NCBI GenBank assembly: GCA_045837725.1
Contig: JBEWZL010000109.1
Location: 1 to 64,000, forward strand
Direction: 5' to 3'
DNA length: 64,000 nucleotides
DNA from: Vermamoeba vermiformis
Lineage: Eukaryota
The translations under genes and the position numbers were made by a program. Under the pieces are notes generated by a model. That model did no database searches and was not told the origin of the DNA. It saw only the letters and a program-made list of their open reading frames with translations. Within the stretch, counting starts at the first letter, position 1, and each line of letters opens with the position of its first letter. Below, piece after piece: positions 1,448 to 52,692 of the stretch.

Positions 1448-4400
1448 ATGAGTTCGGCGCACGATCAACTAAAAATTATATTAAAAAAGAATGTGTGGCT
1501 TCAAAAGCGCAGCCCTTGCGGCCTGGTCTGCAACTTGTTGCTTCCCATCATTTTGGTATGTAATTATTGATGAGTAATCCTTAAAATATTATTTAATTTC
1601 CAATTTGGCATGGAAGCGTCATACTATGCATTAATAATTTTATCTTATTATTGATAAAAAATCTTCGTGATACCAATGACAGATCTGATCGTGTTGCTAT
1701 TTAGGGAGCTTTAGCCGGTGTTATTTTCCGATTTGGCTTTATGATGATTTACGACGTTAGTAATCCAGCAATTTCTGCAAGCAACCCTTCAAAGCTAACC
1801 GGATTCTCTACTTCCATGGGCTTCGCCAACTGCATGCTTCAATATAACACCTCAAGTTGTTTTATTGGAGCTACTATTGCAAATGGCTCAACAATAACAA
1901 ATCTAAATGCGATTGTCAATCAAACTACTCAGAATCTGGTTCTCAACGATCCCATTAGCGTTTTCTTTGGGTCTGCAAACTATAAGCTCTACGCAAGTCC
2001 AGAGGAGCTACAAAAAGATTATTTAGCTGTTCAAGGAAGAATGTGGAGCGGTAAGAACCCCTGAGCTATCGTTTCTTTTTGCCACATCCACTAATTTATT
2101 GACAGCCATCGAGTTCTCCGGCACTGACAACCAGCTTCAATACACTATTCGCTTCAATGATAGTGTGCTGCCGTCTGAGTACAAGCCCTGCACTATTAGC
2201 CTTCAAACGGGCGAGTATTATGATAGGTCAGGTTATTTGGCAGTTCAGATCGCTGTCGAACAAGCACTTATGAAACATTATGTGGAATCTCATGGCTTGA
2301 CCTTTGTCAAACCTAAGCTTGATTTGCATTATTCGGCTATTACAAGCATTTCTAGCGATACAAATAACATCGTGATCTGCTTCTTGCCAAGTTCAGCAGC
2401 ATTTTTCATGACCTTCGCATTTTTGTCTATTGCCATCGTTACCACGAATCGTAAGTACTAGGCTCCTCCTACAAAATATTAGACCTCGACGAGTACTAAC
2501 GTATGATGTTGTAGAGTTGCTTCGTGAGAAACAGTCGCGCATGAAAGAATTCATGAAAATGATGGGCTTGCGCGAGTCAATTTACTGGCTTAGTTGGTTG
2601 ATCACTTACCTCGTGCCAATTACTCTCGCGTCCATTATGATCACAGTGATCATCTACAGCATCAACGCCAAGTATTTCCTCTCGAACCCGATCATGCTGT
2701 TCTTATTGGTCTTCTTGTTTGGCACATCCATCACGACTTTTGGATTTTTCCTCGCATCAGTGCTCAAGTCTACTAAAGTCGCCACGACATTCACCGTGCT
2801 CTACTTCTACCTGATCAGTCAGGTCTCGTACTTCTTGAAAGACACTCCTCGGTGGATCCGCATTTTGAGCTCACTGCTGTCACCTTTGGCCTATCAATTC
2901 GGCATTAACGAGTATGGTGCCGCAGAGTTCAGAGGGTCTGGTGTCTCACCTTCAAACGCATTCGAAACTGGCGACTTCAGCTTCGGCGCTGCTCTTATCA
3001 TGCTTGCTGTTGACACGTTGTTTTACTCGTTCTTGGCTTGGTACTTCAGCAATGTTTTGCCGGGTGACTTTGGCATTAGAAAGCCCGCGCACTTCTTGTT
3101 CACTCGCTCCTACTGGGCTCCTAAACACGACCGAGAGCTCTTGCACGATGAAGATGCTTCAAACTTGATGGCCTCGGCTGAAGACCACGACTCTGCCAAC
3201 TTCGAAGCGGTCTCTGCTGACATGCAAGACAGAGTTGGTGTCTCGATTCACGGCTTGACAAAATTGTTCCGTGATCCCAACGAGAAGACTATCACTGCCG
3301 CTGTCAACAACATGTCACTCGATATGTATAAGGGTCAGATTTTGTCGCTCTTGGGGTAAGTCTACTGATCGTAGTGTTACCTTAGTACTAACTTATTGTA
3401 GTCACAACGGAGCTGGTAAGAGTACTACTGTGTCAATCTTGACTGGTCTCTATCCTCCTACTTCTGGTCACGCCTACATCAACGGTCTCGACATCTCGCA
3501 GAAGATGGATGAAATTAGACGTCACATGGGCTTGTGTCCTCAACAAGACTTGCTCTTTGATGAACTTACCGGCAAAGAACATTTATTGATCTTCGGTCGA
3601 TTGCGCGGTATTCCTGCTCGTCAATTGGAACGCGATGTTGCTGAGGCTTTAAGAGTACGTTAATTTTTGATATTATTCGTGAAAGCAATTGCTAATCAAA
3701 CATAGGACGTCGAATTGGAGGACAAACAAAACACTCTCGTCAAGAACTACAGCGGTGGTATGAAGCGAAGACTCAACGTAGCTATTTCGTTGTTAGGTGA
3801 TGCTCGAGGTACGTCAATTCTACGCATTATTTCAACGAGCCTATTGAACTAACGCGATATAATTAGTCGTCTTCTTGGACGAGCCGACATCTGGTCTCGA
3901 TCCTGTGTCTCGCCGTGGCTTGTGGAACTTGTTGAAGCAAAAGAAAGAAGGCCGAACTATCATCCTCACAACGCACTTTATGGAAGAAGCTGACATCTTA
4001 GGTGATCGTATTGCGATTATGGCTAATGGTAAAGTCAAGTGCTGTGGCAGTCCTTTGTTCTTGAAGAACAGATTTGGCATTGGCTATTACTTGACCCTCG
4101 CTAAGAACGAGACTGCACACGACGACAAGGCGATTGAAAGCCTCGTACAAGGTACGTTAAATATATCTTAGATTACACTAGGAGGCACCTATAATGTTAT
4201 TACTTTACAGAGGTTATCACCGACGCTACTGTGGCTAGCGAGACAGACAACGAAATCGTCATGCTTTTGCCCTTGCACACCGTCAAGTTGTTCCCTACTT
4301 TGTTGCGCCGCATTGAAGAAGAAATCAACACAGGGTATGTATTATTCATAAGGTCGCCTAGTGTATCTTCTAACACGAGTTAATTAGCAAAACTCTTGGT

Positions 4401-7400
4401 ATTGAAGGCTACGGCATTTCGATGACTTCACTCGAGGACGTGTTTTTGAAGATCACGCACGAAGACTACGAAGCACGCCACGAAGGCAAGAAGAAAGGAA
4501 CATTCACATTGCACGTCCGTGACGCAGAAAAAGAAGAGGAAGAGCGCCGCAAAGAGTTCAATCAAAAGCTTGGTGTCGTCGAGTTGTCCGCGTACAGACC
4601 TAAAGACGCTGAGATGTCGGAGTTGTTGCATCGATCTGCCCCTAAGACTAAGCAATTCAAAGTCTTGTTGAAGAAGCGCGTCATCAACGACAAACGTAAC
4701 TGGAAAGCATCGCTGTTGTTCATTTTGTTGCCTTCGTTGTTCATCACCATTACTCTAGGCTTGAGCAAGGTACCAAAAAACATAATGACCATTAGTTATA
4801 GTAGTACTAATTGGTATTATTTAGATGCAAGCTCAAACTAACGTCATCAATACCGCAACTGCTGGATCCAACTTTGCGAAAGTGCCCATTAATTACCAGT
4901 CATGGTTTCCTTTCTCCGTTCCTTACACTACTTACGTCAATAACAATGCTCCCGATGGCAACAACCTTCAACCGTAAGCCAACTAAAATATTTTTATTTT
5001 TTGGATTCGCTAACAGATCTTCCTCCTAGTTTGTCTGTATCACTCGATCCCTTATGGAGTCAGTTCAAAGATATTCCTAAAGATGATTTAGAGTTTATTG
5101 AATACCCCAACGCTACTGCAATGGAAGAACATATGATGTAGTGGACTCAGAGTCGTTCGTTAGATTTTGCCACGTGGCGCCAACACCGTGGAGGCTTTGA
5201 ATTCTACAATGTGAATTACACGACAAATTCATACGGATTCTACTTGCCCGTTAATATGACGGAAACTACTTCCCTTCCTACTTTAGTCAATTTATTCAAC
5301 AACGCTTTGTTGTCCAAAATGCTCGCTGATGGCGGAGTTCAAGGCAATGTGGCACTACTGAATATGTCTAGTCACCCCTTAGACTCAACTGGCTACGTTG
5401 GTTGGGGCATCAACATCTCGGATCCGACTCAAAGTATCGGCAACACCCTCTATTTCATCGTCGCGTTCTTCTTTGGTTTTTGCATTATTGGCGGCATCTT
5501 AGGCAAAGCTGTAGTAGTCGACAAGGAGTTCCAAATCCGCTTGCAGATGAACTTGATGGGTGTCGACAAGCCGACTTACTGGTTCAGCACTTACCTCGTG
5601 GACTTCATCATGATTTTCATTGCTGGTTCAGTGATGGCCGGCATTGCTGCTGCATTCCAAGGTAGCTATTCGATCATACACAAGCTATTTAATAACCACA
5701 CTAACACCTCCTATTAGTTCCCATGTTCATTACTCCTGTCGGTTTGCAAGCCTACTTTGTGTTGTTGCTTTTGTTGTCTTTGTCATTTGCCGTGTCAAAC
5801 TACATTATTGGCTCGTGGTTCAGCAAATCAGAAGATTGTCTCAGTACGTTATATTATTACTATGACACGTGTCAATTGTCGAGATACTAACCCTTAATTC
5901 TTAGAATGGATTATCATTTTGAACTTTGCTTCAGTTGCCTTGCCAATCATGTTGCGATTGATCATTCAAATTATCGCCGGAAGAGTCAGTCCTAACGCCT
6001 ACGACTTCGTTAACAATATCACGAGCTACCTTCCCGACTTGTTCCCGCTCTCTAGCTTGTCTTTGTTGTTATACGACATTTTGTCTATTAAGACCAAGGA
6101 CTGGGCCACGACCACTTGGGATAACCTTTTGGATCCGACCGTGGCTGACACGAAGAAGAAATTTATCGCGTTGGGAATCCAAACTGTTGTCTTCTGGGTC
6201 ATTTTATTCGTCATTGATTACTTCGTAAGAATACTACTCTGATTTTGACATTTGACACGTGTCACTAATTGTACGACAGGCAATGAAAATCAGACGCCAT
6301 TCCCGTCCTCCAGCCCAACCTCAATACTACGAGCCTGAAGATAACGACGTTACTCGCGAGAAGCAACGTATGGCCAATCACCACGAGCTCAGCGATCCTA
6401 TCAAGGCTGTTGATGTCTACAAGAGCTTCGGCAAAAATCAACACGCCGTGCGTGGCATTAGCTTCGGAGTTACAAAGGGAGAATGCTTCGGCTTGTTGGG
6501 TCCTAACGGTGCTGGCAAAACAACGACAATGTCAATGTTGACAGCACAATTGGGTCCGAGCTTTGGTGAAATCTTATTGGCTGAAAACTCAATCTACAAC
6601 AGTGACCTGCACACATTGTACCGCAAAGCCCAGATCGGCTACTGTTTGCAATCCAATCAAGCGCTGTCACCCTACTTGACCGTGCGCGAACACTTGGAGC
6701 TCTACTTGGGTCTGCGCAGCAACTTCACTGAACACCAAATGAAGGCCAAGATTGACGAGATGATCGAGCGCATGGACTTGGAGCAGTACACGAACAGAAT
6801 GGCAAAGAATTTGAGCGGTGGTAACAAGCGAAAACTGTCGGTGGCCGTGGCTATGTTGACTGGCTACAAGATTGTCTTCATGGACGAACCCAGCACTGGT
6901 ATGGACCCTGGTGCTCGTCGATCCTTGTGGAGTGTCATCACCGAGGCTAAAGGCGACACCGTCGAGCCTAAATGCATTGTCTTGACCACGCACTCTATGG
7001 AGGAAGCCGAGGCCGTTTGCAACAGAATTGGTAAGGGTGAAATTTCATTTGACACGTGTCACTCGACTAATTGGGTTTTCAGGTATTATGGTTAAAGGCA
7101 AGATGCGCTGCTTGGGATCCAATCAACACTTGAAGAACAAGTTCGGCAGCGGCTACAGATTAGTTTTGAACATTAAGGAAGAGTTTGCTGGTCACGTGCA
7201 ATCATTTGTTGCACAGCTCTTCCCTGGATCCGTCTTGCTCGAAGCAGGTAAGCAATCGAACTAGTACCATCTTACGATCAATTTAATTTACTAGGGACCT
7301 GTGTGTAGCATATACTAATGCGGTTAATTTTTAGTTGAAGGATTCCGTACTTATGACGTCGGAAGAATCGAAGGCAGATTGTCAATGTTCTTCGAAGAAA

Positions 7401-21562: not shown

Positions 21563-23143
21563 ATGTGGAAAGTTAATTCCATCCTGGTCGTAGGTTTGGT
21601 ATTTTTTGCCTGGACCTGCTCTGTTGCTACCGCAGATGCGGGCTTGTACAGCAACTACAAAAAATTATTTCCTTTCAATGTAGAGCAGGAAAATAATTTT
21701 GGTATGGCTACTTCCAGAGAGCTGACTGCCTTAGATAATGTTAGACTTTGTAATTTACAACCTGGCCAACAAGTTACTTTGGATGCGACCGGTTACGTTA
21801 ACTGCGACTTCTTGGGCTATGGTAAAGCTATAATTATTTTAATTATTGCGCCCATAATTTTGTGCGCTCTCTCCTTGGTTGGTTGCGTCCTCTACATGTT
21901 CTGCGCCTGCTGCTCTTGCTGCAACTGCTGCATGTGCTGCTGCTGCACTAAGGAACGAAGTCTGCTGTCCAAGTGCATCATGATCATCGTCAAGATTCTT
22001 ATTGCCGTTGCCGCCGCTATTGCCGCCGTAGGCTTTGCCTTTATGCTCACTGGTAGTGCTACAGTTGGTACTGGCATTTTGGAGATTGAACAAACCGGTC
22101 TTGATTTGTTGGACGTCTTCCAAGAGCGCGTGGACAACATCACTTCGCTCGTCAGTCAAATCCCTTCAGATCTCTTCAGCGCCGATATCAGCGTTGCTCT
22201 TGCACGTATCCAAACATTCCCTAAAGAGTTCAAGGACGAGACACAAAAGGTCTTTGATCTAATCAATCAATTTGATAAAGGCCGTCAAGCTGCTATTCTC
22301 ATCGCTGGCATTGGCTGCGTGCTGCTCGTTGCTCTCGGCTTCGTGCTCGCCTTCTTCAAATTGCGCACACTCATGATCTGGTTGTGCGTCTTGCTCTTCC
22401 TCGCACTCTTCGTGCTGTGGCTCAGTTTGGGCGTGCACATCTTTGCCTCGGAAGTCGTTGATGACATGTGCGTGGAAGTGGATATCTTGAAGGCTCAAAT
22501 TGACAATGGTACTGCCAGCGGCTCTGGTCCGCTCGGTTTCTTCGTCAAGTGCAAGAACAACGATCCCAACACTATTGGCATGGTCGGTCAAATCATTGAA
22601 GGTCGTCAGAGTGCCTTAGCCGTTGCTTGCCAAGGTCTGAACAACACGTGCTCTTATCCTGGCGTTTACTGCGTTGGCTACGATCCCGCCAACTGCACCA
22701 TGGACTACATCAAGACGGCTGATGGCAGAGTGCTCATTGCTGATACCGTTGTTAACTGCGACACTGGCGGTGGTAATTTCCAAGATGTGAACAATCCTTC
22801 GCAGTGCGCTACTGTTGTCGGAGCCTCGTACAAGAGCACGAACAGAACCATCAGCGAATGCGCTGCTAGTTGTGACAACACCGACTTGAAGGGCTACTCA
22901 ACGACTGTCCTCGATTACGTCGCGTACATCAGACTCTTTGACTCGCTCTACGACGAGTTCTTGGAAGTGCTCAACTGCCGCTTCGTGTACGACGCGTTCG
23001 TTAGCTTGAGGGACATTATTTGTGGTACTTTCTTGCAAGCTATCAACTACATTGCCGCTGGATCTGGTATCATGGCCGGTGGTGTTTCATTGGGCGTTAT
23101 TTTGATCACATACGTCTTCACTCATTTGCCGTATAAGAAATAA
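21563..23143 (+). CDS. Multi-pass membrane protein with Tweety/prominin-like topology, intronless
   Basis: Signal peptide, five TM segments, a Cys cluster after TM1 and two large helical/Cys-rich extracellular loops. Confidence 0.65.
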   Translation: MWKVNSILVVGLVFFAWTCSVATADAGLYSNYKKLFPFNVEQENNFGMATSRELTALDNVRLCNLQPGQQVTLDATGYVNCDFLGYGKAIIILIIAPIILCALSLVGCVLYMFCACCSCCNCCMCCCCTKERSLLSKCIMIIVKILIAVAAAIAAVGFAFMLTGSATVGTGILEIEQTGLDLLDVFQERVDNITSLVSQIPSDLFSADISVALARIQTFPKEFKDETQKVFDLINQFDKGRQAAILIAGIGCVLLVALGFVLAFFKLRTLMIWLCVLLFLALFVLWLSLGVHIFASEVVDDMCVEVDILKAQIDNGTASGSGPLGFFVKCKNNDPNTIGMVGQIIEGRQSALAVACQGLNNTCSYPGVYCVGYDPANCTMDYIKTADGRVLIADTVVNCDTGGGNFQDVNNPSQCATVVGASYKSTNRTISECAASCDNTDLKGYSTTVLDYVAYIRLFDSLYDEFLEVLNCRFVYDAFVSLRDIICGTFLQAINYIAAGSGIMAGGVSLGVILITYVFTHLPYKK

Positions 23144-28551: not shown

Positions 28552-31500
28552 TTATTTCTTCTGTGGCTCTATCTTCAATGAAATTTGATAGAGTTCTTCT
28601 TCCGCCATTGTATTATCTAACTTTTCCAAGAACATTTCCAATTCTGGCTCAACTTGATGCAAGTAATCGTGTCCTTGATACTTCTTGATCTCCTTCACGA
28701 TTGCGTACAACATGCGCAGCTTTTCAAAGTTGATCATATCGCCAGGCAATATACTCATATTGGTCTCTTCGATCGCAAATAAAAATTTGGTAAACAAGCC
28801 TGGAAATTTGGGATCAGATCGTGCCGTCAAAGTTGGATCTTCAAGACCATTTACTTACCTATATAAGGTACTACGGGCAAGTGTGCTTGTGCTAAAGCAT
28901 CACGATAATTCTTATAATTGAATCGCATGCTGAATAGCTCGTCGATCTGTTCCAAGATCTTGATCGACTTTTTGTGCACTTTCTGTACGATGAATAAGAG
29001 CATGAGATAGTGTCACAATAACAATAAGTACATGAGTAATAACGTACCACCCACGTGCTCTTCAGACGTGAAATAGAGACAGCGTTCATGGCCGTGAAGA
29101 TTGCCAGGGCCGTGTTGAAGTTGTTCTCTTCAATGCACGCAGCAGCAATGTCCAAGAAGTGCGAGATCGCTTGTGCTCGTTGTTTTGAATTAGCACTGCC
29201 CAGAACAATCGATTGAACCCATCGTCCCAACTACATTGCACGTTAGTAATTGGCTCTGAACTAACTCAATGACTATAACTCACAGTATTGAAACGAACTG
29301 TCATCTTGACAAAGTTGACGCCATTGACTGGATCCACGAAAGACTGCATGAAAAGGGTCAGTAACTCAGCCACATATGACAGCTAATCCGACGTACCTTA
29401 TTCAAACACTCACGAGGAGTGATCGCTTTAAACAATCGATGATCAATGGCGCTCAATGCATTGGCAATCTTGCGTGCATCAATCGTTAAAATATCAATCT
29501 TGCTCTTGCTCTTGCTGGCCTCGATCTTCTTTTGCTGTTCCTTTTGCTAAACACGCCTTTGTTAGACAACCCCGTAGTACAGTAAATAAGCTACACGTAC
29601 CAAAAAGTTGGATTTGATTTGGTTCAGTGTTGCAGGCAAGAACATGTCGTTCAAGAACTGCGACACGATCGTCTCTTCTTCTTTCGTTTTGAACGTGTCA
29701 CGTGTCGTGCTGCGAATGAACTGCTTGAACTTGTCGACAAAGACTGGCTTCTTTTGAAATTCTTCACGTTGTGTTTTCACCCACATCTTGAGCAATTGCA
29801 GAATTCTACAAAAATGTTAGTTCCAGTGCGCTTTAAACCAAGAATGAACGTACCTGACTCTGTTGTTCAACTGCCACTTCTTCAAGTCCGTGCCACTCAT
29901 CTTGTGGAAAACAGCGACGAGCTTATCGAGCAGATCTTGTGGCTCGATGAAGTAATAATACGCAATCAAGAACAAGTCAATAAAGTCTCGGTCTGTGGAG
30001 GAGTTAGAATATGCAAACTCGACGTGTCATTGCAGTACGTACCATTGTAATTCGTGTCTAACAGCTTGGCAACCAAATTATCAATCTTCGATGACTGAAT
30101 AATCAAGTGACCTTCTTTCATTTGATACGCGATATCAGGGAATGATTTCTGGGAATTAATCTGTTAGCCAGGGCACGATTTAAGTGCACCTAGGACTTAC
30201 GCTAAATATATATTTTCGCTCAGCAATCAAAACCTTCATCAAGTTGGTGACTTTTTGGTCCATTTCTTTGTCGTCCTGGCTGAAATTAAGAATGCACTTT
30301 TCACGAGGAATAGGTTCGACGGCATTATCCTTCTCGGCCTCGGCAGCATTAGTGTCGCTCTTGCTCGGTGAAGCCTTCTTGCTCTTTAATGTGTTGTTCT
30401 TGCTGCGTGTCGCTGGTGACTTTGTGCCAATGCTTTCATCAGAGGTGTTCAGTGACCGGACAAACACGCCAGCCGAACTTCTCAGCATGTTATTCACGTT
30501 CAGCAAAGCTGTGTCGCTTTGAGATTGTTCAGGTCGTCTTGGTTCGACTTCAGTCTCTTCATTGGCCTCGGGAATAGCCGCTGCCTTCTCTGGTGTCTTG
30601 TTCAATTGCCCAGACTCGGACAGCTCGCTCTCAGACTCTTCAGTCTTGGGCACCGAAGCGGGGCCAGTCCACGACATGCGCTTCTCGAGCGTACGTCTCG
30701 GTGAGGCCTCATTGGAGTCTTCGATGTTGGCAAGGGTTAAAGCGTTGGGTGGTGTACTGGATGGGGTATGTGACTGCGAAATGTTGTCCTTGAACGAGGA
30801 TCTCTTTCGGATCTTCGACCTAGAACTTGCTTTTGATTGGTCGACGATATTATCCGTGGATTTACTCTCGATTATTTCTTTCTTTGGCTTAGGAGATTGC
30901 TTGTTCTTTTCTTTCTCCTGCAGAACGGTCCGTTAATCTCCGCATTAATCTCGCGAAGATTCAAATTTTTCCGATATTACGTACCTTTTGCTTCTCCTTC
31001 TCTTTGTTCTTTTGTCCCTTGTTCTTCTTAGTGGTGACTTTCGGCGAATCGACTGTTTCTTTTCGTTCTTCACTTTCTTCCTTTTTATCCTTCTTGTCCT
31101 CGTCTTTGTCTTTCTTCTCCTTCTCGGGTGTCTCTCGTGTACTATCTTTTGGTGCCTCTTCCACGGGCTTTTCCTCCGTTCTGCCGGTCTCAGGTCGAGG
31201 TGTAGTTCCCGGCAAGTCCGTCAACGACGGCTGCGGTGAGAGCGAATTGATGGGCTTGATGACTTCAAAGCGACTTGACAACAAGGAGTGTCGCTTGGCC
31301 AATGCAGCACCAAAGCAAAGCAACAACTCTTCAGTCTCGCGCTTGCTCCAGGCAACTGTCTTAGCCTCGAGTTCTTCTTTCGTCAATTCGACTTCATTGC
31401 TCGTAGACGACTCTGCTTGTGGATCTTCGGCTTGTTGTTCGCCGCTGCTTTGATCTTTCTTGTCGTCCTTATCGTGCTTCAAGTTAAATGACTTGGATAC

Positions 31501-37102: not shown

Positions 37103-38371
<1,269 letters not shown>

Positions 38372-44543: not shown

Positions 44544-46745
44544 ATGGAGAACAATACTACGGAGGTGCAAAATGATAACGAGCAAAAAATCGTATCAGAA
44601 ATAATTAACGAGATGGTCGAGGACTATAATATCAGCAAAAATTATTCAACCGAACCATTGACAGAAAACGTCGATCCGGATCTGCCTCCAAGCTACGACC
44701 CAACAGCTCCAAATAACAATACAAATCAATCTATTATCGGAGGGCTAAATAATACTCAAGTGGATATTAATAGCGCTAACGGAACTGGATCTGGATTGTT
44801 AGTGCCTCAGAACAGACCCTTGCCTCGCTTCAAATTATTTAGAATTATTGGAAGCTATCGAAAAGGCGTACTTCAATTTGTGGTCGAAGAATTACGCAGA
44901 TTAGGATTCAGATTGGCTCACCCTTCTGTTCCGTTCGAGCAAATCCACGTATTTTGGAGCAGATCTTTTGCGCCGCACTTGACAAACTTGCGAAGCCACC
45001 AAAAAGTTAATTTCTTGCCTGCTATGGCTGAAGTATGCCGTAAGGACTTCCTCAATAGTAAGTTTCGGATGCAGTTCCATGCTTTTTTTGTACAAACAAT
45101 TATTTCCATTTCTTGAAATTTAAATCGTTCAAAAAGATTGTAACTCACTTAATAATATATAGGAAATATTCGCAAGGCTAGAGCGAAATATCCAGACCAC
45201 GCTGAAGTGAGATCTAGATCCTAACTATTTTACTCTCAGTACTTACGTGCTCGCTTGTAGGTTTATAATTTCTGGCCTATTGGATTCAATCTGCCGCACG
45301 AGATCGAAGACATGCGAGCATTTGTGGACGAACAGAAGCAGAAAGGAAATCTCGATATGACTGGTCCGTTCATTTTAAAGCCGCCTCTTGCTGCTCGTGG
45401 AGAAGGTATTATCCACAGTAATTAAATAAGCGAATTAATATTAATATTTTGTTCAGGTATTCGCTTAGTAGCTAATGTTGACGAAGTGGATCTGAACGAT
45501 GAGTGGTACGCACAAAAAATTCCGTTGGCTCAACTGTAAGTGCTATTATGACACATTATATGAGCTAATTAGATTTTAGATATGTCAAAGACCCATTGCT
45601 TATTGAAGGCTTCAAAATCACTTTCCGAATTTACGCTGCTTTGACCTCGCTGGATCCAACAGTCGTGTATGTTTATCCTGGAGGACTCGGAAGAATATGT
45701 TCAGAGAAGTAAGTAATAGGTGGCGGCTATATTATATTTATAGAGTATTAATACATTTTGAAGGTACAAGTTGGAGCTTGATTCGTTGAAAAACCTCGAG
45801 ATCCACTTGACTAACTACGACTTGAACGTGCACAACGAACAAAATTTTAACGATCTAGTCGGTGATTCGATACAACATGACGGCCTTAGAGTGTACGTAT
45901 TATGAGAGTAGTAGATACTTCGTTAGGTTTGTTAATTAACGGATCCAAACAGTGACTTGGAATATTTCTTCGATTACTTGAAAGAACGAAACAGAATTAC
46001 CGATCAACAAATTGAATACGTGTGGCAACAGATCAAATCGTTGGTAGGCAAGACCTTTATTTCGTCCGAGTCTACCATTTCATTGTGGGTCCATAGAAAA
46101 GTTCCTAAACGGTACTGCAAAAGCGATAAATTGTTATTTCCAAATTTAGTAATATTTTTTCTTTTGCAGATCCAACAGCTTTGAGTTGACAGGTTTTGAT
46201 ATCCTTATTGATTCTAGCTTCAAAGTATGGTTGTTAGAAGTCAATCATACTCCTTCGCTGTCACCGCACACAGAACTCGAGAACAAATTGAAGCGCATGA
46301 TGATTCGTGATTTATTGCAATTAGTTGATATTGAGAATAAGACTCAAAGGCAGATCTCGCAAGAAGCCGACAGAAAATACGCTTACGTCTGCAAGTACGT
46401 CTTTATTTTATATAAATTAAAAGGTACAATTATTTATGGGCTATTTATAGGCTCAATGAAGAATCTCCGGCCGCTGAAACAGATCCGCTGATTAACGAAG
46501 ACGGCACGGTCAATATTAAGAAATTGACGCGCATGGACATTGTTACTATTGTCTCGACTGAGATACAAGATCAACACAAAGGTCTGTGGCAACGAGCATT
46601 CCCTATTGCCGAGTCACTGGACTACGTTTCAGTCGTTGAAAATCGCAGATCGCGCTTGCTCGTACATTGGTTCGCGAATAATATGGACTCGAACGAATGC
46701 TTACTGCCGCCTGAAGAGAGACCTGTCAAATCTCAAGACGAATAA
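44544..46745 (+). CDS. Tubulin-tyrosine-ligase-like (TTLL) ATP-grasp enzyme; further 5' exons likely
   Basis: QKVNFLP, FILKPPLAARGEGI, YVKDPLLIEG, HLTNYDLN and FELTGFDILID...WLLEVNHTPSL. Confidence 0.9.
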
Positions 46746-46901: not shown

Positions 46902-48503
46902 ATGCAAGAAGCAATCTTCCATCAGATCAAACAGCTGATCCCTAAGTTGAGCAGACACGCTCATAAGGGTAAATACTATAGAGCTGTCAAATTAATTTCC
47001 ATACTGTAATAACCATGTATATTTATGTTTAGGACAAGGAGGTAAAGTTGGAGTATTGGGCGGCTCTTTTGAATATACTGGTGCTCCTTACTACGTCGGC
47101 ATCTCCGCTCTAAAAACTGTAAGAATTTTAATTCTTATTTTCATTAATGTGTTATGATGTGCTGAAGCTTGTCGTATGATAGAATTATCTATAATTCATG
47201 CACGAGCTTTTTAAAAATAAATATCCAAGTTGCAAAGGTTTTTTTCATGAAATTGCCAAAAATCGTACACCTTTACTGCTATACTAATAATATGAATATT
47301 TAGGGTGCTGATCTTACATACGTCTTTTGCACAAAAAGCGCAGGTACTGCGATCAAGTCGTACAATCCAGAACTGATCGTCCTTCCTGCCCTCAAAACTG
47401 CAGACGAGTAAGAATAAATACATTTCGAAAAAATTCTTATGGTTTGTTAACGGTAATTTTACTCAAGATGGAAGGAGGACTCGCGTTCTGTCGAAGAAGT
47501 CGCTGCGAGTGTCAACAAGTGGCTGGATGCAGTGCAGTCTTTAGTCATCGGACCTGGTCTCAGTCGCGATGAGAAAATACAAGTACGTAGTACATTTGTA
47601 TATGATCATTTAGGAGAAAGGAACTTCAAACCGGATCTGGATCTGATCCTTTGCCTAATTAGGAAACAGCAGCATTGATCTTAAAAGAAGCGAAGAAAAA
47701 ACATTTGCCCATTGTGATTGACGGCGATGGCTTGTGGCTCGTGAAAAATCAGCCCGACATTATTCGTGGTTACGATTTGGCTTTGTTGACCCCAAATACT
47801 GTTGAATACGCGTAAGTCACTCATTCATCCTCTTATACTAATTATTATTAATACTAATGTTATGACGTTATAGGCGATTATGTGAGGCTATTTTGAATGT
47901 CAAAGCTGACGAAGCTAAAGCCAATCAAAAAGAATATTTGACGAAGTTAGCTCAAAAGTACGTTCCATAATACATTTAAATATTTATATATCATTCTATA
48001 ATTATTTAACTTAATCTAACGTGCCGTGCTGTAGTTTGAAGGTGACGATCTTGGCGAAAGGTGAAAAGGACATGGTCTCGGACGGCGACACAGTGCTCGA
48101 ATGTGACGTGAAAGGTGGTCTGAAGCGCAGTGGTGGTCAAGGTGATTTGTTGGCTGGTGCCGTGGCTACTTTCAGCAACTGGTTCAACAGCGAACAAGGC
48201 AAAAAAATCGACGTGTGAGTGTCACTTACGATATTTGCGGCACCGTTGTATAATATCAATATGACTCATATTGTTATATTATATAGTAAGCCTCTCGAGG
48301 GCTCTAATACCAAGGCTTACTCAAGGTTAGTTCTCGCAGCCTATGCTGGATCCGCTTTGATCAAAACATGCTCACACGAGGCTTTTGTGAAGTACGGCCG
48401 TTCAACGACTAACACGAATTTGATTGAATATATTGGCGATTCATTCGACCATTTATTTGAGCACGAGGAGTTCTCGAGTGCTAAGAACAGATCTAGCTTG
48501 TAA
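46902..48503 (+). CDS. NAXD: ATP-dependent NAD(P)H-hydrate dehydratase
   Basis: [41 protein letters not shown] and [12 protein letters not shown]. Confidence 0.95.
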
Positions 48504-48733: not shown

Positions 48734-49903
48734 TTATAGGATATTCTTCTTATTCGTTGGTGATAGTTTCCAAGTTTGTCGAATGAAATTTGGGATCTGC
48801 AGATCTGCTCGAGGCTGTAATGATTGGTCGTAGAATTGTGATACGTATTTGAGTGTTTTAGGATCTGATGGGTATCCTATTAAATAAATAGGTAAATAAA
48901 TGAGATGCAGAATACGAATATAACGGAGTTTTTTCCGTACCGGATCCAAGTTCTACATTATGAATCTGTTCTAATTCTTTAATAGCCCTATCTCGCTCTA
49001 CTTTAGCTATTATAGATGCGGCAGATACTACAGTCTATTATTATATCGTTAATAATGCCGTTTAATTGGATCTGAAACTTACGTATTTCGAATCTGCTCC
49101 GTGCTGGCAAATAACTTCTGTTCTTTGATCAGTAGCGTCTATACTTAGCATATTTTCGAAGTGTGCACCATATCTCGCTGGTTTAATGTCAACTGAGTCG
49201 ATATACAACGATTTTAAAGTTGATAATTGCTGCGTTTGAAGCTTTTGGCGGATCTGACGAATGACTTCGAGCATCATTTCTAGCTCTATTTGATTTAGTG
49301 ATACTCCACTCTAATAATATAGTAATTAGCAAATGAAAATAAATGTTGTTGAGTAGATTTGGCTGATCTTAAAATTTTAGCGGCTTACTCGTCGTTTGGC
49401 ATCGATTTCATGAGCTTGAATAGGCAAAGATACTATAGCCACTGCATTGTCTTTAATCCAATCATATAACATGGCTCGTTTCTTGGGTACTAAGCAATAA
49501 ATATTTTAGCTATCATAAACATGGTTCTGGATGTCGCTTGAGCTTCGCGTAAATATGCTTTGAGGAATATAAGTACTTACAAATAGCCTTAGAATCTTTA
49601 ATACCTATTTCTTTGAATTTATTCTCTTGTCTTTCGTCCAAAACAATTCCCGCCACGATCTGCGTAATATTTTGAATAATAAATAAATTGTAATATTAAA
49701 TTGATACTACATACCATTGGGCCAATTAAAGGACCACGTCCTGCTTCATCAATACCTGCAATTAAAAATCGCTGTGCCGTGCAGTAACGACGACTAGATT
49801 TGCATCCATTGTTGCTTAGTTTCAAAACTAGATTATCGTGCTTGCTTTGTATAAATAGCCTTCTATTAAATACAGTAATGTAGCGTGTTGTGTTTGATAA
49901 CAT
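48734..49903 (-). CDS. Ribonuclease HII with N-terminal extension, 6 exons
   Basis: IAGIDEAGRGPLIGPM, DSK, YIDSVD, ADSKYTVVSAASIIAKVERD, GSGYPSDPKT and FIRQTW; all introns join in frame. Confidence 0.93.
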
Positions 49904-50173
49904 GATTCTTTCGAAATAGTTCGGATGGGTGGATCCAAAAATATCCGAAGAAAAGTCGGTGGCAAATTCAATGAAGAAACTCTATGAAAGTCGTGTATAA
50001 GTGCTACAGTGTTATGAATATAAACTGCACACCGTTTTTTAACAATTTTTTCTTATCAGGACCTGTCGTCCCGTCAATCGATTTTGCGCAACCAATTGAT
50101 TCTGTTGAAATTATTATTTTCTAGCACAAGAGCACACTACCTTCTTATTTATTTTATTATAAGTGCTCGCAAC

Positions 50174-50983
50174 ATGTTTAAAATAAGACTGAAATCGCTG
50201 TTAGCCATCAGTTTGTGCTTCGTAGCTTGCATTCAGTTTGTAACTGCTATAGATCACGTTAAATGCAGCAATATTACAACAGGCATGAAAATTAATGGTC
50301 AATTAAGCTTTACACATCAAACAGACTGCTTTATTGTGCAAAAACACGATGCGACATCTGATCGACTTCGAGTTATTACAAGAGGCGAAGTTAGCCAAGA
50401 AGAATATTATATATGCACATATGTAACTCAAGATAATCACGGACTTGGTGGCGGATGCGCTGCGCAATATAGAAAGCAAAATTATAACATCTGCCCTCAA
50501 ACCTATTCTCCAGGTAAAATCACCGACCCTTCACAGTAATACTATTTATTTAAGACATTATTACGTATTTTAATTATAATAATAGAGCTTTATTTTCGTT
50601 CCCCAAATTATGTCGTAAAATTATCATTAATTTTCTGATCAGTCGGAAGCTCCGTCGTAATTACGATTTCATGCGCAACGAAGCCTCACGGATGTGAATA
50701 TATGCTCGATGGGTCTTATACTATGACAGCCACTTGGGGTAAGCACAGTCAATAGATTATACTTCTAGATTTCACATGATTTTTATTCCGAATTAAAAAT
50801 CGCCGTTACACCTTGTAATAGGCATCCATATAATATACAATATGACTACTAAGATTACTAACGGTATATTTAATATTTATAGTGCAAACTGAAGCTCAAT
50901 GTGTCTCACGGGCAGAAAGTTCAGCAGATGGGTTAAAATTCGGGCTTAGTTTCCTTTTAGCGATGCTGCTTTTATCATTCTAA
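50174..50983 (+). CDS. Small Cys-rich secreted, probably GPI-anchored protein, 3 exons
   Basis: Signal peptide; C-terminal SSADGLKFGLSFLLAMLLLSF hydrophobic tail. Confidence 0.7.
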
Positions 50984-51311: not shown

Positions 51312-52692
51312 ATGAGTGCCCACGATCAAGTCGAGCTCGTTCCTGAAGAGGAGATCGCAGCAGTAATGCGCGAGATTCAGGATCACATCTGCAACTGGCT
51401 TGTAAAGAATTTTGGACAGACTTATCACGAAGATAAATGGAACTATGCTCCGAAAGGTGAAGGAGGTGGCATTACTCGTGTTTGGGAAAATGATATTACG
51501 GATGGAGCTGAAATTGGCGACAAATTGCTAGAGAAGGGCGGAGTTAATTTCAGCGCTATCTATGGCCCTGATTTGCCTAAGTAAGTACTACTATACTAAT
51601 ATTATTGATAATTAACAATATAGAGCTGTGTCCGAGCCATCAATTTGAAATGTCTAAAAAAACCAAAAAAAAAAATCTGAAATTAATATTGCAATCGATT
51701 TTGCCTATTATTTAGTTATAAATACGATAATTAATTGCACAAAATTCGTATTGAATATGACTAACAATGTCAAAAATACATCCAGACCTGCTTTGGCCCA
51801 AATATCAGCCTTATTTAAGAACGCACCTCCCACACAAGGTGACAAGCCTTTATCAGCTCCCTTCTTCGCTACAGGCATTTCTCTCGTGCTACATCCGTTC
51901 AACCCGCACGTGCCCACGATCCACATGAACGTGCGATATTTCCAGGTCACAATCCCAGACCACACAGCACCCAATGGCAAGAGAGTGCAATGGTGGTTCG
52001 GCGGCGGCATTGACTTGACGCCTTACTACCCCAAGATCGAACAAGTCATCGGCTTTCATCAGGGCCTCGCGCAAGTTTGTGCCCGTCACGGCGAAGATTT
52101 CAACAAACACAAAGCTGTGTGCGACACTTACTTCACGATAACGCATCGCAAAGAGATGCGCGGTGTGGGTGGCATATTCTTCGATCATATGCATCACAAA
52201 TCTCCGAAGTGAGTTCATTCTACAAAAAATTTTGTTTGATCCGCATCCAAATCCACCTTATTCATTCTGAAAATACTTTCTAAATATTATTAATAGCACG
52301 TACTAATTAATATTAATATTTTTAGAGAGATTTTGGCGTTTATTCGAGATCTTGGTATCTCCTTCACAGATTTGTACGCACCTTTCGCGCTGAACAACAG
52401 AACCTTGCCCTACACTCCCCGACAACGAAATTTCCAACTAATTCGTCGTGGCCGTTACGTCGAGTTTAACTTGTGCTACGATCGAGGCACGAAATTTGGT
52501 TTGGAATCAGAAGGCCGCACCGAATCCATTTTAATGTCACTGCCCGTCACGGCAAAATGGCGCTATAATTGGCAACCGGACGATGACGGTCCCGAAAAGG
52601 AAATTTCGAGCTGGTATTACCAACCGCAGGATTACGTCGGATTAGATCTGAAGAAATTTGCAGCCGAACATCCCGCACTTTCAGCACTGTAA
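51312..52692 (+). CDS. CPOX: Oxygen-dependent coproporphyrinogen III oxidase, 3 exons
   Basis: EKGGVNFS, HPFNPHVPTIHMNVRYF, WFGGGIDLTP, RGVGGIFFD and RRGRYVEFNLCYDRGTKFGL. Confidence 0.97.

Follow-up and report, generated by a model that had tools for sequence, protein, structure and literature searches.

A nuclear, intron-bearing gene for an archaeal-type RNase HII with a presequence-like N-terminal tail on a Vermamoeba vermiformis contig

Introduction

Could a eukaryote use a stand-alone, archaeal-type enzyme to remove ribonucleotides from its mitochondrial DNA (mtDNA)? The question is raised by an RNase HII gene at positions 48734 to 49903 (minus strand) of a 64,000-nucleotide stretch of Vermamoeba vermiformis DNA (contig JBEWZL010000109.1, positions 1 to 64,000, here called the window). 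A 2017 study by Wanrooij et al., listed among the references of PMC13492167, reportedly concerns this subject, to judge by its title. RNase H2, with its catalytic subunit RNASEH2A (H2A), is reported not to act in yeast or human mitochondria, and the ribonucleotides in their mtDNA to be left unrepaired (PMC7809514). The window gene encodes a complete type 2 RNase H which, by sequence and predicted fold, is of the archaeal RNase HII kind. We consider it rather probable that this is a nuclear-encoded, stand-alone RNase HII of archaeal type that is imported into mitochondria, where its task would be to nick DNA at sites of embedded ribonucleotides and at junctions of RNA with DNA.

Results

The gene has six exons. 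Joined by their coordinates, they give 834 nt, corresponding to 277 codons and TAA. The introns measure, in order, 55, 91, 78, 48, and 64 nt, and all five are of the GT..AG type. An orthologue, P0001, was found with exon 4 alone as the query; it is an unbroken 278-residue open reading frame (ORF) on a 1786-nt public contig. The features of the gene are listed below, together with matches to the Pfam profile PF01351 (RNase_HII).

48734..49903, minus strand: RNase HII gene from start to stop codon; 6 exons, 5 introns, 277 residues; all junctions matched by P0001
49904..49965, minus strand: 5' untranslated region of at least 62 nt, without an upstream ATG; from a piece of a public contig (run X1) over 49715-49965
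49715..49903, minus strand: exon 1, residues 1-63; N-terminal tail and first strand with D-E-A-G-R-G; PF01351 positions 1-15 correspond to residues 49-63
49763..49903, minus strand: N-terminal extension, codons 1-47; presequence-like, with 9 basic residues and 1 acidic; disordered in the model; PF01351 begins at residue 50 in P0001
49733..49750, minus strand: D-E-A-G-R-G, codons 52-57; first two catalytic carboxylates and GRG; D and G invariant in 80/80 aligned sequences
49581..49659, minus strand: exon 2; ends in phase 1; PF01351 positions 16-40
49389..49489, minus strand: exon 3; loose read ends from a relative's RNA show it joined to exon 4
49083..49310, minus strand: exon 4, 76 residues; SLNQIE, LYIDSVD (D161, 49197-49199), and HGADSKY (D196, 49092-49094); 84% identical to P0001; highest RNA read depth of the gene
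48941..49034, minus strand: exon 5; AKVERDRAIKEL helix; PF01351 positions 137-161
48734..48876, minus strand: exon 6; G-Y-P-S-D-P with Y232 (48872-48874), IRQTW, an 11-residue tail without a PIP-like motif, and TAA

The spliced protein carries IAGIDEAGRGPLIGPMIVAG, SLNQIE, LYIDSVD, HGADSKY, AKVERDRAIKEL, and GSGYPSDPKT, which are all of the motifs quoted in a preliminary description of the locus, and its C-terminus lies, as stated there, shortly past IRQTW (11 residues). Between a stop at 49982-49984 and the start ATG at 49903, there is no other ATG in frame. Met does not recur in this frame until residue 63, beyond the catalytic residues D52 and E53, so the N-terminal tail is needed in any active product. 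The gene is flanked by a convergent gene (end at 48503) and a divergent gene (start near 50175), and the 271-bp spacer on the divergent side is too short for another upstream exon.

P0001 and the spliced window protein align end to end with one single-residue gap, and the alignment is continuous over all five junctions. Identity is 207/230 columns in the core and 28/48 columns in the N-terminal part. Because not all intron lengths are multiples of three, an ORF of the P0001 type could come only from spliced RNA or from an intronless copy. The 90% cluster of P0001 holds three further 278-residue members, on contigs of 1.1 to 1.8 kb, and short fragments from longer contigs. P0137, a genomic-looking 93-residue fragment of a relative, reads through the position of intron 5. 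No RNA run is listed as containing the stretch itself; three RNA-seq runs from an organism 90 to 95% alike gave 17 to 26 reads per run on it. These reads fall on exons 1, 2, 4, and 5, and at this depth they include no formal splice joints and none lie over exon 6. Four reads (X3) and three reads (X4) leave at 49301 into letters coding for E-I-D-S-K-R-R-S-G-V (read by eye), which is the exon 3/exon 4 joint. The 254-nt public contig shows 0 differences over 49715-49965, stops exactly at the edge of exon 1, and adds 62 nt of leader; the RNA nature of the run that gave it is a guess. The splice model is independently supported, and the gene is a nuclear, intron-bearing gene, not prokaryotic contamination.

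Profile, PDB-sequence, and fold results were obtained with P0001, which stands in for the window protein (core 90% identical). P0001 matches PF01351 over residues 50-268 with 144.5 bits (cut-off 25.8; E 4.8e-42), and separate parts of the profile are hit by window exons 1, 2, and 5 with 18-24 bits each, singly below that cut-off. Against NCBIfam model TIGR00729, P0001 scores 188.7 bits (cut-off 123.3), and it is below every cut-off of the NCBIfam models for bacterial RNase HII and HIII. A phmmer search of PDB sequences gave 93-134 bits for nine chains of archaeal monomeric RNase HII, compared with 52-59 bits for four human and mouse H2A chains and 45-49 bits or less for bacterial RNase HII. 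The spliced window protein was itself searched locally against the fetched proteins: archaeal sequences scored about 150-160 bits and amoebozoan homologues 120-136, the microsporidian H2A P0311 scored 44, and bacterial-type sequences scored 37-57. In the reverse control with P0311 (Nematocida), which is very divergent, H2A chains scored 90-98 bits, and the archaeal chains scored 47-74. Beyond the pair of window protein and P0001, the nearest sequences are 42-47% identical.

The active site is complete (D52, E53, D161, D196, G55-R56-G57, and Y232), and its columns are invariant or nearly so among 80 aligned sequences. In enzymes of this family, D-E-D-D, GRG, and Tyr serve to bind metal and to recognize where RNA joins DNA. 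The enzyme looks catalytically competent. An AlphaFold2 model of P0001, built with the 80 aligned sequences, has a mean predicted local distance difference test score (pLDDT) of 83.9, and the means of 10-residue blocks in the core are mostly 85-98. In a Foldseek search with this model, ranks 1-12 are all archaeal RNase HII (TM-score on the target, TMt, 0.78-0.89; 32-36% identity), and human and mouse H2A appear from rank 13 down (TMt 0.62-0.69; 24-27% identity). There were 34 PDB matches at E <= 0.001, and all those listed are type 2 RNases H. In the ESM Atlas, 30/30 nearest clusters belong to PF01351; the top one is mostly eukaryotic (Streptophyta), and the second and third are archaeal. This comparison involves no alignment and was not used as evidence. 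Sequence and predicted fold thus agree with the preliminary description, which had called the protein an archaeal-style RNase HII.

Human and Nematocida H2A have Y-N-L-N in common, as well as D-(T/A)-x-G after the third catalytic Asp, and the H2A motifs as defined here come from these two sequences only. At the same sites, the window protein has S-L-N-Q and D-S-V-D. The last place of the D-x-x-D motif is D or E in 51/59 prokaryote-like and 20/21 eukaryote-like aligned rows. The window protein extends 11 residues past R-Q-T-W, versus about 56 residues in human H2A, where the alignment stops at residue 246/302. This C-terminal part of H2A holds subunits B and C. By similarity and by the features tested, the protein is not RNASEH2A-like, and the lack of H2A motifs and of the C-terminal extension claimed earlier is borne out. 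With the extension absent, the enzyme would probably work as a monomer.

Residues 1-47 contain 6 R, 3 K, 5 S, 4 T, 1 D, and 0 E, giving a net charge of +8, and include RRYC. At the acidic frequency of the core (0.126), the binomial probability of one or no acidic residue in 47 is 0.014. In the P0001 model, residues 1-42 have pLDDT < 50 and form no secondary structure. Between the orthologues, evolution has been faster in the tail than in the core, and the tail's composition is kept, with one acidic residue in each. The highest 11-residue hydrophobic moment is 0.68 in the tail versus a maximum of 0.72 elsewhere; because the tail moment is within the range of the remaining protein, amphiphilicity was not counted as evidence. 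R-R-Y at residues 38-40 would presumably suit a processing site of the R-3 type. As modeled, the tail lies outside the fold, and its composition is presequence-like.

The Arg/Ser/Thr-rich, acid-poor N-terminus with RRYC had been recognized in the preliminary description, and the counts agree (9 basic, 9 Ser/Thr, and 1 acidic residue in 47); such a protein is less singular than that description implied, because N-extended homologues occur in several protist lineages. Among the 150 best representatives at 50% clustering, the catalytic Asp is at most 15 residues from the start in 104, 16-25 residues in 7, and more than 25 residues in 17; the remaining 22 had no motif by the pattern used. Named relatives with long N-termini come from Dictyostelium, Tieghemostelium, Polysphondylium, Heterostelium, Acytostelium, Balamuthia, Ceratiomyxa, Phalansterium, and Paulinella. 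The Dictyostelium homologue, P0133, scores 124 bits to archaeal chain 1eke versus 43-55 bits to H2A. At least three basic residues and at most one acidic residue are found within the first 30 residues of 17/20 eukaryote-like sequences, the window protein included. The exceptions are P0123 and P0167, which have acidic starts, and P0169 (Heterostelium), which has an N-terminal ubiquitin domain (PF00240) and is possibly a fused gene model.

The C-termini of these relatives also differ. Archaeal RNase HII binds PCNA through a PCNA-binding motif, the PIP-box (PMC13492167). A PIP-like [LIMV]xx[FYW] pattern is present in the last 12 residues of 77/132 prokaryote-like versus 3/20 eukaryote-like representatives, with an interior background of 417/3334 windows (13%); such a tail is typical for archaeal members, not strictly defining. 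The last 12 residues of the window protein have no [LIMV]xx[FYW], and its tail is without Q-x-x-h-x-x-a-a. Loss of the PIP-like tail would fit a compartment without PCNA.

Other architectures were seen among the relatives. P0224 (Paulinella) has an insert of about 150 residues within the core. P0128 and P0162 have a presequence-like start followed by a SWIM-type zinc-finger-like Cys/His pattern (by eye) ahead of the catalytic core. P0282, P0284, P0286, and P0213 are RNase HII proteins of about 290-310 residues with a conserved extra C-terminal domain, which may be the fusion in a paper on the TBP-domain superfamily that mentions archaeal RNase HII (PMC3597702).

The phylogenetic tree was built from 64 rows and 230 columns and includes a single H2A, P0311, whose end branch measures 2.33. 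When the Dictyostelium core served as query in a search restricted by length, 45 matches came back, and P0311 was the one named H2A among them. P0305 was first taken as H2A, but its motifs are of bacterial type. The pair of window protein and P0001 is fully supported (100/100), and 27/61 inner branches are open. In the free tree, the pair is placed near Asgard sequences of the Hod and Kari types, between loose eukaryote-like rows and other archaea, and P0311 is placed away from the window protein. A bacterial-type outgroup puts the root among the eukaryote-like rows; this was flagged as long branches meeting, and no polarity was drawn from it.

The neighbors of the gene in the window are ordinary eukaryotic genes, among whose 62 long ORFs Pfam also identifies SPRY, ankyrin, and LRR proteins. 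At about 2400-7100 (plus strand) is a multi-exon ABCA-type transporter, with ABC2_membrane_3 and ABC_tran pieces over several ORFs. A long single ORF at 21563-23140 (plus strand) encodes a membrane protein that crosses the membrane several times and is rich in Cys over one stretch; it resembles Tweety weakly (E 5e-5, under the cut-off), and the protein collection searched does not contain its exact sequence. A RasGEF exon lies at 28895-29230 (minus strand), and an exon of the tubulin-tyrosine-ligase family lies at 46153-46488 (plus strand). Taken with the ABCA transporter and actin genes, these two exons hint at a heterotrophic host, perhaps with flagella, of protist or early-branching fungus-like kind, and point to no firm taxon. 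The intronless gene at 37244-38368 (plus strand) encodes a conventional actin of 375 residues; the exact protein is found on 21 public contigs (the longest 667 kb), and its 90% cluster has 12,508 members, animal actins among them. Across the 271-bp spacer, the divergent neighbor at 50175-50539 (plus strand) has a signal-peptide-like hydrophobic start and no Pfam match, and RNA reads of the relative begin at about 50192. Coproporphyrinogen III oxidase is encoded at 51658-52689 (plus strand) in two ORF pieces, matching profile positions 75-189 and 191-295, and a short intron is implied between them.

Discussion

Import of this enzyme into mitochondria is the explanation that we favor. The presequence of about 40-47 residues, which is basic, acid-poor, and predicted to be unstructured, would most likely send the protein into the mitochondrial matrix and would be removed after import, possibly by a cut after R-R-Y (residues 38-40). 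The mature enzyme of about 230 residues would act alone, placing nicks in mtDNA on the 5' side of embedded ribonucleotides and where RNA is joined to DNA. Such nicking could start ribonucleotide excision and/or clear replication primers and R-loop RNA, and a mitochondrial polymerase, flap nuclease, and ligase would complete the repair. For the window protein, we infer import, processing, monomeric state, and repair role.

The mitochondrial reading gains independent, indirect support from Dictyostelium, where proteomics placed homologue DDB_G0277705 (Q54ZA4) on the list of mitochondrial proteins (PMC9118663). Its ratio of pure mitochondria to lysate is 0.82 (cut-off 0.392), its mitochondrial-cluster probability is 1, and it carries the label 'Proteomics' in the final compendium of 936 proteins (PMC9118663). 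Yeast Rnh201 and human RNASEH2A are entered in the same study as its non-mitochondrial homologues (PMC9118663). Dictyostelium also has RNASEH2B, with a PCNA box (PMC2615623), and therefore the archaeal-type enzyme sits beside a canonical complex there.

Several observations weigh against mitochondrial import or against carrying the Dictyostelium result over to the window protein. TargetP-2.0 assigns DDB_G0277705 to 'OTHER', and its listing comes from one proteomics experiment in which the adjusted P for pure mitochondria versus lysate is 0.055 (PMC9118663). Searches of the supplements of that study did not turn the protein up in the microscopy table, and the main text leaves it undiscussed (PMC9118663). 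No RNase H names occur in the supplements searched of two Acanthamoeba mitochondrial proteome papers or in the one main text searched. The organelle DNA of Chlamydomonas contains many ribonucleotides (PMC7809514) even though a bacterial-type RNase HII gene predicted to be organellar is listed for this alga (PMC4166229), so an organellar RNase HII need not mean efficient excision repair. The free tree, whose backbone is weakly resolved, does not join the window protein and P0001 to the amoebozoan homologues, and one clade of all 19 eukaryote-like rows is not rejected (difference in log-likelihood, ΔlnL, 10.6; p 0.309 in the approximately unbiased [AU] test, p-AU), so the Dictyostelium protein is a homologue and at most a candidate orthologue. 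The AU test likewise does not reject a clade of the window protein, P0001, and H2A (ΔlnL 5.0, p 0.367), in which H2A is represented by one long branch. The Andalucia mitochondrial proteome paper names RNase H1 alone, and in the supplements searched of a 2026 Dictyostelium spatial-proteomics preprint, DDB_G0277705 is present only in a FASTA file, with no localization row.

The TargetP result (PMC9118663) would also be expected if the protein were a nuclear or cytosolic stand-alone RNase HII paralogue with a tail that serves as a nucleic-acid-binding or nuclear-import segment. A basic, unstructured tail would suit such non-organellar roles too, and three of the 20 eukaryote-like homologues (P0123, P0169, and P0167) have N-termini that are not presequence-like. 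However, the Dictyostelium homologue is enriched in purified mitochondria (PMC9118663), the other 17 homologues are basic and acid-poor over their first 30 residues, and residues 1-47 of the window protein show no classical K/R cluster. The missing PCNA-box-like tail would also be odd in a nuclear replication or repair enzyme. We regard a nuclear or cytosolic role as unlikely.

It is quite unlikely that the protein is instead the catalytic subunit of the organism's RNase H2, from an RNASEH2A lineage that evolved slowly or became simplified secondarily, and perhaps the genome's sole type 2 RNase H. The protein is far more similar to archaeal enzymes than to H2A, and the true H2A control (P0311) shows the opposite, although the clade with H2A survives the AU test (ΔlnL 5.0, p 0.367) and PANTHER places the Dictyostelium homologue under 'RIBONUCLEASE H2 SUBUNIT A'. 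S-L-N-Q and D-S-V-D stand in place of Y-N-L-N and D-(T/A)-x-G, and 11 residues follow R-x-T-W, versus about 56 past the aligned core in human H2A. The presence of RNASEH2B in Dictyostelium besides the archaeal-type protein (PMC2615623) also argues against this explanation.

We give very little credence to a lineage-specific gain from an archaeon or giant virus, with introns and tail added later, no relation to the amoebozoan mitochondrial proteins, and perhaps another destination such as a plastid: the free tree sets the pair next to Asgard sequences (Hod, Kari) and apart from the amoebozoan ones, and the nearest non-self sequences are just 42-47% identical, but the AU test does not reject one clade that unites the eukaryote-like rows, a recent transfer fits poorly with five spliceosomal introns and with an orthologue whose core is 90% identical, a scan of viral contigs with P0001, which detects close relatives only, found no relative, and nothing in the neighboring genes (RasGEF, ABCA transporter, actin, and tubulin-tyrosine-ligase family) suggests a host with a plastid.

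Mitochondrial import of an archaeal-type RNase HII could also be set in a wider history, which we put forward tentatively and consider doubtful. An Asgard-like, host-derived RNase HII may have been kept beside RNASEH2A/B/C as an old and little-noticed eukaryotic family, may have lost its PCNA tail and gained a presequence, and may have become a mitochondrial nuclease for ribonucleotide excision and primer removal. It would survive in scattered protists (Amoebozoa, Paulinella, and this organism) and would have been lost in animals and fungi. If so, the failure of yeast and humans to repair ribonucleotides in mtDNA is a derived state.

If protists send such an enzyme to their mitochondria, eukaryotes other than animals and fungi would remove ribonucleotides or process primers in an organelle, with an enzyme of archaeal type, unlike the bacterial type of red algae and plants (PMC3914683). 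Dictyostelium is a tractable model with a homologue already detected in its mitochondria. In the literature searched, which left most subscription journals outside, no paper naming a mitochondrial or organellar archaeal-type RNase HII was found, so absence is unproven, and DDB_G0277705 was in no main text. A 2026 review on RNase HII and excision repair has mitochondria only in its reference list.

Comparison with Known Enzymes

The best matches of the window protein, by sequence and by predicted fold, are monomeric archaeal RNases HII, namely those of Pyrococcus horikoshii (1uax), Methanocaldococcus (1eke), Thermococcus kodakarensis (1io2), and Archaeoglobus (1i39/3p83). They have in common the catalytic residues, GRG, Tyr, and the D-S/A-x-D motif. 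Unlike the archaeal enzymes, the window protein is encoded by a nuclear gene with introns, has a 47-residue N-terminal tail, and ends in an 11-residue C-terminal tail without a PIP-like motif. With RNASEH2A (human 3puf_A, mouse 3kio_A), it shares superfamily, fold, and catalytic residues. It differs from RNASEH2A in its low similarity (52-59 bits, 24-27% identity) and in the absence of Y-N-L-N, of motifs of the D-T-V-G type, and of the C-terminal part of about 56 residues.

Dictyostelium DDB_G0277705 (Q54ZA4) and the homologues from other dictyostelids, Balamuthia, Ceratiomyxa, Phalansterium, and Paulinella resemble the window protein in having an archaeal-type core and an N-extension that is mostly basic and acid-poor. 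These homologues are only 31-38% identical to P0001. The dictyostelid proteins have N-extensions of 100-270 residues, and 5/6 have low-complexity or coiled C-terminal extensions of 90-210 residues, which the window protein lacks.

CMT626C of the red alga Cyanidioschyzon merolae is a stand-alone, nuclear-encoded RNase HII that is mitochondrial by green fluorescent protein fusion (PMC3914683, PMC4166229), and it has homologues in most plants and algae (PMC3914683, PMC4166229). It is of bacterial origin, whereas comparison of the window protein with solved bacterial RNase HII chains gives only 45-49 bits, and comparison with bacterial-type sequences gives 37-57 bits. CMT626C nevertheless provides a precedent for the arrangement proposed here, in which a nuclear gene supplies mitochondria with a stand-alone RNase HII.

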